Shown: positions 24,951 to 31,313 of the stretch, piece after piece
Layout: each line of letters starts with the position of its first letter
How positions within the stretch are numbered: position 1 is the first letter of the stretch
UHGV virus genome: UHGV-0203498
Strand: one strand, 5' to 3'
Length of the DNA stretch: 32,670 nucleotides
DNA from: a virus
Notes under the pieces: model-generated
The model's database searches: none
What the model saw: only the letters and a program-made list of their open reading frames with translations
What the model was told of the DNA's origin: nothing
Program-made: the position numbers and the translations under genes

Positions 24951-25003
24951 GAACGGGGTGGCTCACAATAACCCCGATACATGTGAAAATGAGGAATTGG
25001 AAA

Positions 25004-25795
25004 ATGGCTAAAGTCAACCTGAAAAATGTGCGCGTATGCTTCCTGAAAATTTGGGAGCGTGATACCCCAAAACAGGATGGGCAGAAACCGGCATACCGTG
25101 CCGTTATTCTTCTGGATAAAGAAGATCCGCAGGTGGACAAAGTGGAAGCGGCAGCGCGCGCAGTGCTCACCGACAAGCTGAAATCCGAGAAGAATGCCGA
25201 TAAGTGGATGGACCGCCACTACGCACAGGACTCTAAGGAGTGCGCCGTCCGCGACGGTGACGAGCGCGACGAAGTAACCGAAGAGTTTGAAGGCATGTTG
25301 TACATCAACGCCAAGTCGTTTAAACAGCCTAACATCCAAACGTCACTGGGCGAGAAGCAGACCGAACAGGGTCTGACCGTAGAAGGCGACGAGATCGAAG
25401 GCCAGGAGATCTACTCCGGTTGTTACTGCAACGTGTCCCTCGATATTTGGGCGTGGAACAACACCAACGGCAAAGGACTCGGTGCCGGATTGCTGGGTCT
25501 GCGCTTCCGCGAAGACGGTGATGCCTTCGGCGGTGGTGGGTCTTCTTGCACCGATGACGATCTGGACAACGACGACGAAGACGAAGCACCGCGCAAGTCT
25601 AAAAAGTCAAAACGTCGTGATGACGACGATGATGATGACAAGCCGCGCAAGTCCAAGAAATCCAAGCGCCGCGATGACGACGACGATGAGGAAGAGGAAA
25701 AACCTCGCAAACGTCGTAAGCCACGCGATGACGAAGATGAGGACGATGATGACGATGACGACGATGTAAAACCTCGCAAACGTCGCCGCCGTTAA
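25004..25795 (+). CDS. Single-stranded DNA-binding protein (gp2.5-like) with a repetitive basic/acidic C-terminal tail
   Basis: ATG at 25004 preceded by GAGGAA at 8-nt spacing. N-terminus MAKVNLKNVRVCFLKIWE resembles gp2.5-like phage SSBs. The C-terminus is built of repeats such as PRKSKKSKRRDDDDDDD. Confidence 0.55.
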   Translation: MAKVNLKNVRVCFLKIWERDTPKQDGQKPAYRAVILLDKEDPQVDKVEAAARAVLTDKLKSEKNADKWMDRHYAQDSKECAVRDGDERDEVTEEFEGMLYINAKSFKQPNIQTSLGEKQTEQGLTVEGDEIEGQEIYSGCYCNVSLDIWAWNNTNGKGLGAGLLGLRFREDGDAFGGGGSSCTDDDLDNDDEDEAPRKSKKSKRRDDDDDDDKPRKSKKSKRRDDDDDEEEEKPRKRRKPRDDEDEDDDDDDDDVKPRKRRRR

Positions 25796-25813: not shown

Positions 25814-25840
25814 AAGCCCGCTTAATGCGGGCTTTTTATT
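25814..25840 (+). terminator. Rho-independent terminator after the SSB gene
   Basis: Stem AAGCCCGC / GCGGGC with loop TTAAT, followed by TTTTTATT. Confidence 0.6.
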
Positions 25841-25853
25841 AGGACAATGAAAA

Positions 25854-26024
25854 ATGATTGTTAAAGCCAGCGAAGTAAAGGTCGGAATGAAGGTGTGGTC
25901 CAAATTGCTGGGCGAGTATTTCATCGTTGCCGAGATTCGCAACAACGGCGAGGAGATAACCCTTTCCGACGGTATCTTCTCCATGATCGGCAGCGCTGAC
26001 GCCGTAGTGAGGATAAAGCAATGA
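25854..26024 (+). CDS. Small hypothetical protein (56 aa) coupled to the DNA polymerase start
   Basis: ATG at 25854; its stop overlaps the polymerase ATG (ATGA). Sequence MIVKASEVKVGMKVWSKLLGEYFIVAEIRNNGEEITLSDGIFSMIGSADAVVRIKQ. Below the ORF-track size cutoff. Confidence 0.3.
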   Translation: MIVKASEVKVGMKVWSKLLGEYFIVAEIRNNGEEITLSDGIFSMIGSADAVVRIKQ

Positions 26025-28312
26025 AAGACTTCGAACGCCTGTTTCTCGACACCGAGACATTCAGCGAGGTGGACCTGAAGAAAGTCGGGGCGTACGCCTA
26101 CGCAGAACACCCATCGACCGAGATTATGATCTGCACCTACGCCATCGACGAGGGCCGCGTGCAGACATGGGACGCCACTGAATCCCCCACAATGCCGCGT
26201 GAACTGCGCAAGGCGCTCCGCCAGGTATCCCGCAAGAAAGCAAAAATCGTGATGGCTAACGGCCTCCTGTTTGACCGCCTGGTTATCAGTGAGAAGTGGG
26301 GAATCGACCTGCCGGTAAGCCAGATCGAAGACACCATGATTATGGCCTTCCGCCACGCGCTGCCAGGTAGCCTCGATATGCAGTGCCAGGTACTGGGCGT
26401 TGACGCAGAGCACGCGAAGGATAAGGCGGGTAAGGCGCTGATCAAACGGTTCTGTAAGCCTACCCCTAAGACCTACAAAATCCGCCGTTACACGCGCGAG
26501 ACGCACCCTGAAGAGTGGGCTAAATTCCTGCGCTATGCCGCGCTGGATATTGTTGCTATGCGTGAAGTCTACTGGCGCATACCAGACTGGGGCAACACGC
26601 CGAAGGAAGACGAAATCCTGCGCATCGACCAGATGATTAACGACCGAGGCTTCTATGTGGACGTTGACCTGGCGAACGCCGCGATCAAGGCGGTGCAGGC
26701 GCATAAGGAAGAATTGAAGGAAGAGGCATGGGAGCGGTTTGGCGGCAAGCTGACCGGCAACGACTTCCTGCCGATTCTGCGTGATATTGCCCCGGCGTTC
26801 ACTATTCACAACGCGCAGAAATCCACGCTGAACGACTTGCTCGAAGACCCGGACTTCCCTGATGAGGGCAAAGCGCTGATTGAGATGCGTCTCGGTGCAT
26901 CATCAACGGCATCGACTAAGTACAATCCGCTCGTCAATGGCCTGTCTGCCGATGGTCGCCGCCGTGGCTGTCTTCAGTATGGCGGGGCGAAGCGCACACT
27001 GCGTTGGGCCGGTAAAGGCTTTCAGCCTCAAAACCTGGCACGAGGCGAGTACAGCGATGACCACGAAGGGAAGATTAAACGCCGCGAGGGCGAAAGCGAC
27101 GTCTCGTTTTGGGTCCGGTCGCACATGCTCACCAACGGCATCAACTCCCTGTTACGCGGTACAGCGCACTGGGCATATGACATATCGAAGCTGACCGCCT
27201 CGACCGTTCGCGGGTGCATTATCCCTGCTAAGGGCAAGAAGTTTGTCGTAGCGGACTATTCAAACGTCGAAGGGCGCGGGCTTGCCTGGATCGCGGGCGA
27301 GAAAACTGCGCTCATGGTGTTTAAAGCCGGTCGTGATATTTATTGCGAGACAGCCGGTAAGATGTTTGGCCTCGACCCGGACTACATCAAAGCCAACCGC
27401 AAGGATTTACGCCAGATCGGCAAGGCTTGCGAGCTTGGCCTGGGCTATGGGGGTGGTGTCGCGGCGTTCTTGCAGTTCGCCAAAAACCTGGGCCTGGACC
27501 TGTACGCGATGGCGGAAGTCATGAAGGGCACATTCCCCGATCACATTTGGGCGGCGGCGAAACGCGGCTATGAGTACGCCCGCATTAACGAAGCGAAGCG
27601 CCCGCCGAAGCCTGGCAAGAAAGACGAGCGCCCAACCTACATACTGCCGAAAAACGTATGGCTGACTTGTGACGCAATCAAACGTATGTGGCGCGAGGCT
27701 CACCCGAAGACGGTCACCTTTTGGGCCGAGCTTGAGGACGCGGTGTTGTGTGCAATCCGCAATCCGGGCAAAGCATACTGGGCTGGCGCTAACGTTCGCC
27801 CGGATGGCAGAAAAGCGCTCAAGATAGTGCGCACGAAGGCGAAGCACGACCCTACCTTCGACGAGGAGCGCGACGACCCGAACGCGGCTGGGTGGTGGCT
27901 TAAAATTGAGTTGCCGTCAGGGCGCATCATGAGCTACCCTGGCATCGCGCTGTCTGTCACGACCGAGATCGACGAAGACACCGGCAAGAAGCGAACCAGT
28001 ACCCGCATCAAATACCAGGGCGAGAATCAGACGACGCGTCAGTGGGGATTCCAGTACACCTACGGCGGCAAACTTACGGAGAACATCGTACAGGCGTTGT
28101 GCCGCGATATTCTCGCATGGTCCATGCCTGGCGTTGAAGCTGCGGGGTATGAAATCGTCCTGTCGGTGCATGATGAATTGATAACTGAAGTGCCAGACAC
28201 GGATGACTACACGACTGAAGAGCTTTGCGCGCTGATGTGCGACCTGCCTATTTGGGCGAAAGGGTTCCCACTTGCCGCAGAGGGCGACATTATGTACAGG
28301 TACAGGAAGTAA
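26021..28312 (+). CDS. Family A DNA polymerase with 3'-5' proofreading exonuclease domain
   Basis: Exonuclease motifs LFLDTETFS, MANGLLFD and YAALDI; polymerase motif A ADYSNVEGRG, motif B RQIGKACELGLGYGGG, motif C SVHDELI. Confidence 0.9.
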   Translation: MKDFERLFLDTETFSEVDLKKVGAYAYAEHPSTEIMICTYAIDEGRVQTWDATESPTMPRELRKALRQVSRKKAKIVMANGLLFDRLVISEKWGIDLPVSQIEDTMIMAFRHALPGSLDMQCQVLGVDAEHAKDKAGKALIKRFCKPTPKTYKIRRYTRETHPEEWAKFLRYAALDIVAMREVYWRIPDWGNTPKEDEILRIDQMINDRGFYVDVDLANAAIKAVQAHKEELKEEAWERFGGKLTGNDFLPILRDIAPAFTIHNAQKSTLNDLLEDPDFPDEGKALIEMRLGASSTASTKYNPLVNGLSADGRRRGCLQYGGAKRTLRWAGKGFQPQNLARGEYSDDHEGKIKRREGESDVSFWVRSHMLTNGINSLLRGTAHWAYDISKLTASTVRGCIIPAKGKKFVVADYSNVEGRGLAWIAGEKTALMVFKAGRDIYCETAGKMFGLDPDYIKANRKDLRQIGKACELGLGYGGGVAAFLQFAKNLGLDLYAMAEVMKGTFPDHIWAAAKRGYEYARINEAKRPPKPGKKDERPTYILPKNVWLTCDAIKRMWREAHPKTVTFWAELEDAVLCAIRNPGKAYWAGANVRPDGRKALKIVRTKAKHDPTFDEERDDPNAAGWWLKIELPSGRIMSYPGIALSVTTEIDEDTGKKRTSTRIKYQGENQTTRQWGFQYTYGGKLTENIVQALCRDILAWSMPGVEAAGYEIVLSVHDELITEVPDTDDYTTEELCALMCDLPIWAKGFPLAAEGDIMYRYRK

Positions 28313-28316
28313 GATT

Positions 28317-28649
28317 ATGAAAAAAGTAAAAGTAGACGTTTATAGATACGAGTTTTTCGTCTCGCCGTGCGCCGACGAGGTGGCGGCAAAATGCAAGCGG
28401 ATAACAGGGTATCAACCTGATAGCGACGATTTTAGCGCTAATGCCTTCGTCGTTTTTGGTAAAGGGACGTGCCTGGTCTGGATGCCCCCAACGGCAAGTA
28501 TTAACACGGTGGCACATGAGGCCACACACGTAGCGATGAATCTCATGCGGGACTGCGGTATTGCGCCTGACCTCCATAACCAGGAGGTTATGGCGTATTT
28601 AATCGGGTATATCGTCGGCGAGATAAACCGGGCAAGGAACGCACAATGA
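28317..28649 (+). CDS. Small HExxH-motif protein (putative zinc metallopeptidase-like)
   Basis: ATG at 28317 preceded by AGGAAG; motif VAHEATHVAMNL; about 110 aa. Confidence 0.5.
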   Translation: MKKVKVDVYRYEFFVSPCADEVAAKCKRITGYQPDSDDFSANAFVVFGKGTCLVWMPPTASINTVAHEATHVAMNLMRDCGIAPDLHNQEVMAYLIGYIVGEINRARNAQ

Positions 28650-28924
28650 CCCCAGAAGGCAAGATTCAAAGCTACCTGATGCGTCGGGTGAAAGCGGTGG
28701 GTGGATTCTGCCGCAAAGTGGCCTGGGAGGGGCGCGCAGGTGCGCCCGACCTGATTATCATCATCAACGGCATCATTGTATTCGTCGAAGTGAAGCGCCC
28801 AGGGGGAAAACCGAAGCCGCACCAGGTGCGAGAGCATGCGCGGATGGCCCGCCGCGGTGCTGACGTTCGCGTCATTGACAACATAGCCGACTGTGATTTA
28901 TTGGTTGCTGAATTGGTCGCATAG
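28646..28924 (+). CDS. VRR-NUC domain nuclease
   Basis: GAPDLIII...VFVEVKRPGGKPKPHQ matches the PD-(D/E)xK core of VRR-NUC domains; start coupled to the upstream stop (ATGA). Confidence 0.8.
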   Translation: MTPEGKIQSYLMRRVKAVGGFCRKVAWEGRAGAPDLIIIINGIIVFVEVKRPGGKPKPHQVREHARMARRGADVRVIDNIADCDLLVAELVA

Positions 28925-28953
28925 CGGTATAGTGTGCCGGTTAGGAGGATTTT

Positions 28954-29127
28954 ATGATTGAAGAAAAACGTTGTAGTAACTGCGGCTGTGTTAAGCCGCT
29001 ATCCCAGTTCCACAAATACACCGGAAAGACTGCGCGCAGTCCAGACGGGCATCGGGCCGAGTGCAAATCGTGCCGCAATAAGAAAGAGCGAGAACGGCAG
29101 CGCCGCTACCGCGCAGAACAAGAATAA
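28954..29127 (+). CDS. Small zinc-ribbon protein (57 aa)
   Basis: ATG at 28954 preceded by AGGAGG at 5-nt spacing; CSNCGC...CKSCRN four-Cys arrangement with a basic C-terminus. Preferred over the overlapping TTG-initiated ORF 28958..29173. Confidence 0.45.
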   Translation: MIEEKRCSNCGCVKPLSQFHKYTGKTARSPDGHRAECKSCRNKKERERQRRYRAEQE

Positions 29128-29169
29128 TCAACACGGCGGGCTTGTCCCGCCTAAAAAGGAACCGGAACA

Positions 29170-30606
29170 ATGAGTAAAAAGATGGCACGATTCCGACGCC
29201 GCGAATATCAGAAATTGATAACTGCGTTTATCCTCAAACATGAGCGCTGCAATATATGGGCGACAATGGGATCCGGCAAAACCGGCGCGACTATGTGGGC
29301 GCTGAACAAAATGTTCCAGACCGGTATCCTGTCCAGCCAGAAGGACCGCGTACTGGTGCTGGCCCCACTGCGTGTTGCATCCGGCACCTGGCCACCGGAG
29401 CAAGAAAAATGGCGATTCCCCGCACTGCTGGTCGTAGACGGCACCGGACCGGAGAAGGACCGCATTGCAGCGCTGGAGAGCGACGCTAACGTCGTTTGTG
29501 TCAATTATGATGTAGTTGAGTGGCTTGTCGAGTATTGCGGCGACGAGTGGCCCTTTACGGTCGTTGTTGCCGATGAATCCACTAAGCTGAAAGGCTACCG
29601 CAGCAAGCAGGGCAGTAAGCGCGCCCGCGCACTGGCGGCGATTGCGCATAAGCACGTCAAGCGCTGGATTAACCTTACAGGCACACCAGCCCCAAACGGA
29701 CTGAAAGATTTATGGGGGCAGACGTGGTTCGTCGACGGTGGCGAACGTCTCGGCAGCAGCTATAAGGCATTCACCGATCGCTGGTTTATTAGCAAGCCTG
29801 TTAAGCCTGGCAGCTTCACGATGCAGCACGCTCCGTTAAAGAACTCCGAGAAAGAAATACAACAACGTCTGTCAGACGTATCCCTAACCGTTGACGCGGC
29901 TGAATATTTCGGATGCGACAAGCCAATCTATACTCCGGTTATTGTGGACCTGCCGAAGAAAGCCCGCAAGATTTACGACCAGTTTGAGGACGAACTATTC
30001 GCCGAACTGGAAAGCGGAACGGTAGAGGCGGCAAACGCCGCAGCGAAAACCGTTAAGTGTCTCCAGCTTGCATCCGGTGCCGTATATAAGGTGGACGAAG
30101 ACGGCGAACGGACCGACGAGTGGGAGAAGATTCACGATGTCAAGCTGGACGCGCTGGAGAGTATCGTGGAGGAGTTGAACGGCGCGCCGTTGCTCGTTGC
30201 ATACCAGTACAAGCATGATCTGGCACGTCTCAAGAAGAAATTTCCGCACGGCGTTGCGATGGGTAAGGGTAAGCAGGGTATCAAGGATATGGAGGCGTGG
30301 AACAGGGGCGAGATTCCCATCATGTTCGCACACCCGGCATCCGCCGGTCATGGCCTTAACCTGCAGGACGGCGGTCATCATCTGGCTATCTTCTCTGACA
30401 CGTGGAACTATGAGCACTTTGCGCAGATTGTGGAGCGTATCGGGCCGGTCCGCCAGATGCAAGCCGGACACCCCAGACCGGTATTCGTCTACATTATCCA
30501 GGCGCGCGGGACACTGGACGAACTGGTGGCAGACCGCCGCGATAGTAAGCGCGATATCCAGGATGACTTGATGGAATACATGAAAGCTAAGAAGGGGCGC
30601 AAGTGA
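29170..30606 (+). CDS. SNF2-family (SF2) helicase
   Basis: Walker A ATMGSGKTG, Walker B VVVADESTKLK, motif III LTGTPAPNG, and C-terminal helicase motifs HPASAGHGLNLQ. Confidence 0.85.
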   Translation: MSKKMARFRRREYQKLITAFILKHERCNIWATMGSGKTGATMWALNKMFQTGILSSQKDRVLVLAPLRVASGTWPPEQEKWRFPALLVVDGTGPEKDRIAALESDANVVCVNYDVVEWLVEYCGDEWPFTVVVADESTKLKGYRSKQGSKRARALAAIAHKHVKRWINLTGTPAPNGLKDLWGQTWFVDGGERLGSSYKAFTDRWFISKPVKPGSFTMQHAPLKNSEKEIQQRLSDVSLTVDAAEYFGCDKPIYTPVIVDLPKKARKIYDQFEDELFAELESGTVEAANAAAKTVKCLQLASGAVYKVDEDGERTDEWEKIHDVKLDALESIVEELNGAPLLVAYQYKHDLARLKKKFPHGVAMGKGKQGIKDMEAWNRGEIPIMFAHPASAGHGLNLQDGGHHLAIFSDTWNYEHFAQIVERIGPVRQMQAGHPRPVFVYIIQARGTLDELVADRRDSKRDIQDDLMEYMKAKKGRK

Positions 30607-31313
30607 CTATTGCAAAAATGACTATCTGGTCGTTGTTTGACGGCAGCGGCTTGATGATCGAGCGTGCTGCCGAAATGGGGCACAAATGCTACTGTTTCAA
30701 CTACTCCGAAGCCGACCACGGGTCTTACCTGGACTACCGTATTTACGGTCGCGGTATCCGATACCGTAATGAGTTTATCGATCTGGACTTCGTGGATCGC
30801 GCGATTAATGGCGATTTTGGTACGCCAGACATCATCTACGCTTTCCCGCCGTGTACGGATCTGGCGGTTAGCGGCGCGCCAGCGTTCCTGCGTAAGCGTG
30901 CTAAAGACCCAGCCTTCCAGCTTAAGGCCGTGCGCACCGCGAAGATCGCCGCTTACCTGGGTGACTTCTTCGAAGTGCCATATATGATTGAGAATCCGCG
31001 CAGTGTGCTTTCCACCCAGTGGCGCAAGCCGGATCACTCGTTTGACCCGTGGGAGTATGGTGGCTATCTGCCGGAGGGTGACGTACATCCGTTGTTCCCT
31101 GAATACATCAACGCCCGTGACGCATATCCGAAGCTGACCTGCTTATGGACCGGCAACGGCTTTCGAATGCCGGAGAAAAAGCCTGTATTCGTTGAAAAAG
31201 GGTACTCGAAGCAGTATAGTCGCCTCGGTGGCAAATCTGCCCGCACCAAATTAATCCGGTCGCTCACTCCGCGCGGCTTTGCAATAGCGGTCAATGAGGA
31301 AAATTTAAAATGA
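30603..31313 (+). CDS. Compact C5-cytosine methyltransferase-like protein (236 aa)
   Basis: Motif I-like SLFDGSGLM, motif IV-like AFPPCTDLAVSG (Pro-Cys catalytic dipeptide), motif VI-like MIENPRSV. No obvious target-recognition domain. GTG start at 30603 overlaps the helicase stop. Confidence 0.55.
   Translation: MTIAKMTIWSLFDGSGLMIERAAEMGHKCYCFNYSEADHGSYLDYRIYGRGIRYRNEFIDLDFVDRAINGDFGTPDIIYAFPPCTDLAVSGAPAFLRKRAKDPAFQLKAVRTAKIAAYLGDFFEVPYMIENPRSVLSTQWRKPDHSFDPWEYGGYLPEGDVHPLFPEYINARDAYPKLTCLWTGNGFRMPEKKPVFVEKGYSKQYSRLGGKSARTKLIRSLTPRGFAIAVNEENLK

Follow-up and report, generated by a model that had tools for sequence, protein, structure and literature searches.

A small exchangeable phage protein with an HExxH motif, encoded beside a Dhillonvirus DNA polymerase, resembles minimal gluzincins in parts

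A small gene between a DNA polymerase and a VRR-NUC nuclease

We analyzed UHGV virus genome UHGV-0203498, a stretch of 32,670 nucleotides (hereafter, the window) that represents an HK578-like member of Dhillonvirus, a genus of E. coli siphophages. Our subject is a small gene at positions 28317-28649, whose product carries a single HExxH motif followed by a conserved Glu. On balance, the evidence leans modestly toward a standalone zinc metallopeptidase of the gluzincin type, an accessory factor that is most plausibly host-directed and is expressed together with the replication genes. Such a protein would bind metal, cleave peptide bonds and have its target in the host. The gene and its immediate setting are defined by the following features.

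28317-28649, plus strand: the small HExxH...E gene, an open reading frame (ORF) from the ATG at 28317 to the TGA at 28649; orthologue of HK578 gp37, PHROG 1365
28304-28309, plus strand: AGGAAG, a Shine-Dalgarno-like sequence for the small gene, read from the sequence, 7 nucleotides (nt) 5' of the ATG at 28317
26021-28312, plus strand: family-A DNA polymerase, directly upstream of the small gene (PF00476, DNA_pol_A, 2.6e-16)
28646-28924, plus strand: VRR-NUC nuclease, directly downstream of the small gene (PF08774, 24.0 bits against a cut-off of 23.8)

The surrounding region (26021-30606) matches 165 phage records, with HK578 as the best full-length match at 88.7% nucleotide identity. The small gene encodes 110 amino acids (aa; 12.2 kDa, pI 6.3) with no hydrophobic segment. 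An earlier note, made from the sequence alone, had described a gene of about 110 aa between the polymerase and VRR-NUC genes, with a single HEATH motif in a helical context and coupling to the polymerase stop, and this description holds in all its parts. The AGGAAG falls within the final codons of the polymerase gene, the polymerase stop occupies 28310-28312, and the ATG of the small gene follows 4 nt later; at the other end, the small-gene stop overlaps the VRR-NUC start in an ATGA at 28646-28649. The same start codon is annotated in HK578, where the corresponding product, gp37 (“hypothetical protein”), is 88% identical. Since the two genes differ by 27 synonymous and 13 non-synonymous codons, the small gene is under purifying selection, and we conclude that it is a real gene.

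Conserved residues consistent with a gluzincin

Three stretches of conserved codons were recognized in the small gene.

28341-28343, plus strand: codon for Y9, a Tyr conserved in the beta-hairpin at the N terminus (IYPR in the family consensus), invariant in ten phage relatives
28515-28529, plus strand: codons H67-E68-A69-T70-H71 (HEATH), two predicted zinc ligands and the predicted general-base Glu
28569-28607, plus strand: codons D85-L-H-N88-Q89-E90-V-M-A-Y94-L95-I-G97, the second conserved motif (D-x-x-N-Q-E-x-x-x-Y), with E90 as the predicted third zinc ligand

HEATH occurs once in the protein, at residues 67-71, and the expected number of chance HExxH motifs in 110 aa of such composition is about 0.003. 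Among 257 family members that we fetched, HExxH is kept in 253, and in 195 an N-x-E places its Glu exactly 19 residues beyond the second His. The residues invariant in the ten phage relatives are Y9, A66, H67, E68, H71, N75, D85, N88, Q89, E90, Y94, L95, and G97. Across 138 representatives, which share about 17-38% identity with the window protein, H67 and E68 are invariant, and Y9, H71, E90, and Y94 are conserved in at least 90%; Y9 reaches at least 90% in a further family alignment as well. The E90-V-M-A93 segment (ExxA) fits the “glutamate helix” motif of gluzincins, (E,H)xx(A,F,T,S,G) (PMC7213743). Judged by its sequence, the protein thus appears to carry a gluzincin-type ligand set. That both His residues, the general-base Glu and the third-ligand Glu are kept across so divergent a family argues for catalysis rather than for a relic motif. 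Separately, an 8-bp-stem terminator-like hairpin at 28574-28593 lies inside the small gene, where it covers the codons for the conserved NQE residues, and is probably a chance match.

A confidently predicted fold with a zincin-like order of elements

The fold was predicted with high confidence by AlphaFold2 (89-sequence alignment; mean pLDDT 95.9, pTM 0.88). The model contains strands at residues 2-6 and 11-16, a helix at 19-30, a short helix at 36-40, strands at 44-48 and 51-55, and helices at 62-80 and 90-109. HExxH falls in helix 62-80 and E90 in the first turn of helix 90-109, with Y94 one turn on, so that the motif and E90 occupy two long helices in succession, which lie behind a sheet of four strands and its backing helix. 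The predicted order of secondary-structure elements matches that described for the zincin core (PMC5512222) and that of a minimal gluzincin.

Foldseek searches of the PDB gave nothing significant, with no protease as a convincing match. Against BFVD, Foldseek returned 22 matches at E <=1e-3, all of them uncharacterized phage proteins. The weaker BFVD neighbors (E 2e-3 to 0.3) were metagenome phage proteins named PolyVal metallopeptidase (E 1.9e-3, TMq 0.62), SprT-like, Metalloprotease, IrrE (E 0.12, TM 0.39), and BepA. The proposal in the earlier note of a minimal zinc metallopeptidase therefore stands in part: the conserved HExxH, the Glu on the next modeled helix and the zincin-like element order speak for it, and a protease fold match in the PDB did not emerge. 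The two findings that the note had said would count against its idea, loss of the motif in homologs and a structure lacking a metalloprotease-like active site, did not appear, as the motif persists in nearly all homologs and the model shows a protease-like order of elements.

A very large family of free-standing phage proteins

The protein matches PHROG 1365, a family of unknown function, at 1.1e-22 (residues 1-108 aligned with profile positions 5-117 of 127). A tblastn search of our phage collection gave 78 records. Besides the HK578 orthologue, full-length relatives with 36-42% identity were found in Drulisvirus (KP34-like Klebsiella podophages) and in Guernseyvirinae, where the carriers are Jersey- and Cornell-like siphophages of Salmonella, Serratia, and Klebsiella. 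Partial matches came from Bacteroides LoVEphage, crAss-like phages, Erwinia jumbo phages, and a P22-like Proteus phage. When 1.84 billion cluster representatives were searched with a profile, 8,248 proteins were recovered at E <=1e-3 and 1,418 at E <=1e-10, which makes a family of about 8,200 clusters when counted at 50% identity. The best 150 of the 8,248 matches are almost all single-domain proteins of 110-140 aa.

Database annotation offers little for this family. All the source names that we looked up read “hypothetical protein”, except for DAG74056.1, an nr entry identical to the window protein that was automatically named “Thermolysin metallopeptidase, catalytic domain”. The sole match in a Pfam scan of the window protein was a sub-threshold one to Peptidase_M4 (17.6 bits against 22.4, E 0.0057), and NCBIfam and PADLOC scans gave no match. 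Pfam scans of 89 and 138 family members pointed to no consistent family, only to scattered sub-threshold matches (SprT-like, DUF5700, Astacin, M4), and the extensions of ten longer members contained no informative Pfam domain. No Pfam model covers the family, no structure of a relative has been solved, and a close fold match is likewise lacking. On the host side, blastn of the small gene against complete E. coli genomes gave no match, and patterns of the close subfamily detected no relatives in a collection holding one genome per bacterial or archaeal species.

An optional cassette exchanged at exact boundaries

Comparison with other Dhillonviruses revealed that the small gene is a replaceable insert.

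28323-28644, no strand assigned: exchanged cassette; in blastn against Bas85, homology ends at 28322 and resumes at 28645

In most other Dhillonviruses, the slot is occupied by an unrelated ORF of 63 aa (192 bp), in Bas85 the gene Bas85_0043 (locus L002, 3297-3488), which has no Pfam match. The GC content of the small gene is 50.5%, against about 57% in its flanks. Its presence is sporadic in each of the three polymerase lineages that carry it. Among roughly 158 records with a polymerase sharing at least 90% identity with that of the window (Dhillonvirus-type), only HK578 (two records) has the small gene; in the 60-80% identity band (Guernsey-type), it occurs in about 25 of 493 records, and in those with a Drulisvirus-type polymerase, in about 35 of 244. 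The respective frequencies are roughly 1%, 5%, and 15%. Phages with 97-99% identical polymerases that lack the gene exist; for example, the SU552A polymerase is 97% identical to that of P1010, yet SU552A has no small gene. The small gene is therefore an optional, horizontally exchanged and exactly bounded cassette with a sporadic distribution. This pattern of presence and absence indicates that the polymerase and the replisome do not need the small protein. Of two Drulisvirus phages with 97% identical polymerases (L003, 3450-4339, compared with L105, 1296-1504), one carries the small gene and a further 330-bp ORF directly upstream of the polymerase gene, and the other has neither.

Genomic contexts of the relatives

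Within the close subfamily, the small gene abuts a family-A polymerase gene in all 8 of the phages examined, from three lineages. In Dhillonvirus and Guernseyvirinae, it lies downstream of the polymerase gene and upstream of a VRR-NUC-type nuclease gene; the Guernseyvirinae polymerases are 66-70% identical to that of the window. In Drulisvirus, the small gene directly precedes the polymerase gene and overlaps it. The Drulisvirus polymerase shows no blastp similarity to that of the window; still, the Drulisvirus small proteins are 39-41% identical to ours, as alike as those of Guernseyvirinae.

This partnership does not extend to the family at large. Across 38 dereplicated viral-contig clusters, a Pol A gene lies at most three genes away in only 5, and the other frequent neighbors are terminase, portal, lysis, primase, and SNF2 genes; on these neighborhood statistics, we rejected a polymerase partnership as a family-wide rule. 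One member, in a P22-like phage, follows the lysis cassette, and some members reside on contigs that also carry an integrase.

Two distant members illustrate this variety. One (L015/L016, 5001-8272) directly follows a portal gene and belongs to an island that also encodes a HicA toxin, a helix-turn-helix protein and amidoligase/GATase proteins; this context has a moron-like, prophage-like look. The other (L019, 4008-9407) belongs to a metagenomic phage module with VRR_NUC, RecT, MazG, and an Anti-Pycsar Apyc1-like protein of metallo-beta-lactamase fold.

Proposed function and alternative explanations

In the mechanism that we propose, H67 and H71 on the active-site helix and E90 at the start of the next helix would hold a zinc ion, and E68 would act as general base and activate the water bound to the zinc. 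Y94, one turn past E90, and possibly Y9 could stabilize the tetrahedral intermediate, and the strand at residues 51-55, just before the active-site helix, may align the substrate backbone. The result would be a cytoplasmic enzyme of about 12 kDa, made along with the DNA-replication genes through translational coupling to the polymerase upstream and to VRR-NUC downstream. Its nature as an optional, exchanged cassette makes a host protein the most likely target, in takeover or counter-defense, rather than a step needed by the phage replisome. Host or defense proteins may thus be cleaved; the earlier note had named host repressors and defense proteins.

A broader and more tentative extension, which we consider rather unlikely as it stands though worth stating, is that the whole family, very large and phage-specific, consists of free-standing minimal metalloproteases that act as exchangeable host-directed effectors and cleave a host defense or housekeeping protein during the replication phase. 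If so, the family would constitute a widespread class of proteolytic counter-defense or takeover genes, and a host-directed protease cassette would extend the known tools that phages use for these ends. If active, the window protein would be among the smallest metallopeptidases known, and a function would be gained for a family abundant in enterobacterial phages, in Bacteroides phages (LoVEphage-, crAss-like), in jumbo phages and in others, and now everywhere labeled “hypothetical”. The presence or absence of the gene among otherwise near-identical phages provides natural isogenic comparisons for finding the target. Should the protein prove inactive or non-proteolytic, it would serve as a useful warning on inferring function from HExxH.

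Several points weigh against a gluzincin-type peptidase. The three-ligand geometry is deduced from helix positions in an AlphaFold2 model. No defined peptidase family claims the protein, and the M4 match is not shared by the rest of the family. Sequence searches of the PDB with the small protein and with two profiles returned no relative, and literature searches found no publication and no biochemical or genetic data on any family member. Moreover, there is the precedent of ArdC, a mobile-element protein whose zincin domain is dispensable for its known function (PMC7213743). The ArdC precedent and the missing protease fold match both leave room for the alternative that HExxH...E binds metal on a distinct small scaffold, where it either hydrolyzes a non-peptide substrate or works by binding, as an inhibitor or regulator; we regard this as unlikely, yet it is the alternative that survives best.

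Less probable again is a protease of the replication fork that would work alongside the polymerase, VRR-NUC and the SNF2 helicase, either removing DNA-trapped or cross-linked proteins in the manner of SprT/Wss1/Spartan or processing a replication protein. The recurrent adjacency to the polymerase in all 8 close-subfamily phages of the three lineages argues for it, the more so as the Drulisvirus polymerase is unrelated by blastp and the small proteins have nonetheless kept 39-41% identity. So do the translational coupling of the small gene on both sides, the repair-type enzymes encoded by neighboring genes and the one distant relative found near VRR_NUC and RecT. However, just 5 of the 38 dereplicated clusters have Pol A at a distance of three genes or fewer, and the gene is missing from phages with 97-99% identical polymerases, which also disfavors the processing of a replication protein raised in the earlier note. 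The protein has no DNA-binding domain and a pI of 6.3, and the third His of the SprT type is missing: no His occurs within 15 residues after H71. The SprT-like comparison suggested in the note likewise came out negative, as Pfam gave no SprT-like match (PF10263) for the small protein and the family profile aligned with E. coli SprT at a probability of 4% (hhalign), over 32 columns around HExxH only.

We consider it very improbable that the protein is an antirepressor protease of the ImmA/IrrE type, cleaving a phage or host repressor. It is indeed a small phage protein with HExxH and a Glu, and one weak BFVD neighbor is named IrrE; against this, there is no Peptidase_M78 (PF06114) match in Pfam at E up to 10, so that the ImmA/IrrE-like comparison proposed in the note fails as well. 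Nor is a helix-turn-helix repressor adjacent, the flanks being polymerase and VRR-NUC, and no repressor occurs near the small gene in the Dhillonvirus annotations examined. Dhillonviruses are regarded as virulent; if so, a repressor would not be expected there. The lack of relatives in the one-genome-per-species collection and of blastn matches in complete E. coli genomes points the same way.

Finally, the idea that the ORF is spurious or non-functional and its motif due to chance, for which only the small size of the gene speaks, is refuted by the ribosome-binding site and coupling, by purifying selection on orthologues, by retention of the motif in a family of thousands and by the confidently predicted fold.

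Other features of the replication region

Returning to the window, the remaining genes of the region are listed below.

24983-25795: Enc34/gp2.5-like single-stranded DNA-binding protein (SSB)
25854-26024: ORF of 56 aa between the SSB and polymerase genes, with no Pfam match
after the VRR-NUC gene: ORF of 57 aa, whose HK578 counterpart is annotated as a Lar-like restriction alleviation protein
29170-30606: SNF2 helicase
30603-31313: ORF with no Pfam match, collinear with an HK578 gene annotated as DNA methyltransferase

The stop of the 56-aa ORF overlaps the polymerase ATG (ATGA), which suggests translational coupling of the polymerase, too, to a small gene upstream of it. The SSB (24983-25795) has a long low-complexity C-terminal tail, in which acidic runs alternate with basic repeats of the KPRKSKKSKRR type; it is 270 aa long in the window against 245 aa in HK578, and a 9-bp repeat was detected at 25726-25766 (TRF). 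Just 3' of the SSB gene, before the polymerase operon, a strong intrinsic-terminator-like hairpin (25814-25834; AAGCCCGC-TTAAT-GCGGGCTT) is followed by a T run, and a search 3' of it gave no convincing promoter match. Further downstream, HK578 gp34, an ORF of 219 bp that separates the Lar-like gene from that of the helicase (L001, 6162-6380), has no counterpart in the window (at 29127-29170), where the helicase gene starts 42 nt after the Lar-like gene.

Comparison with known metallopeptidases

The small protein resembles a minimal gluzincin in parts and belongs to none of the defined families. Like thermolysin (M4, PF01447), it has AHExxH followed about 20 residues later by a Glu, here a predicted ligand, of the N-x-E type. 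It is one third the size, however, and lacks the M4 C-terminal domain and a signal peptide. Membership in M4 was rejected on a match below the gathering threshold, the absence of PF02868 and the finding that only 2-3 of 227 family members match weakly.

The DNA-protein-crosslink proteases SprT, Wss1, and Spartan share with the small protein a small zincin core, predicted in the latter, linked to replication and repair genes, and differ in their third ligand, which is a His in HExxHx(n)H, and in having DNA-binding modules. Membership in the SprT-like family (PF10263) and in ImmA/IrrE (Peptidase_M78) was rejected on the evidence given above.

Closer in lifestyle are the zincin-like metallopeptidase (MPTase) domains of phage and plasmid polyvalent proteins and of ArdC (Iyer et al. 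2017, PMC5512222; Gonzalez-Montes et al. 2020, PMC7213743), which are predicted to process proteins or to attack host targets. These are gluzincins of mobile elements, with HExxH on one helix and the Glu on the next, as predicted for the small protein. However, they are domains of large multidomain proteins that are often packaged in the virion or transferred, whereas the small protein is a free polypeptide of 110 aa encoded in a replication operon. The Glu of ArdC comes 24 residues past the second His, compared with 19 in the small protein, and MPTase-PolyVal (PF18818) gave no Pfam match for the small protein or the family members scanned.

In size, the nearest counterparts are the minigluzincins (proabylysin and projannalysin, provisional MEROPS M95) and the mini-zincins (DUF1025, Acel_2062). 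They did not appear in the PDB sequence searches or among the listed fold matches of the small protein. Both kinds are standalone proteins with little beyond a small sheet, a backing helix, the HExxH helix and the following helix (PMC3890501). The small protein has in common with both groups a size class of about 105-110 residues, and with the minigluzincins a Glu, here predicted, as the third ligand.
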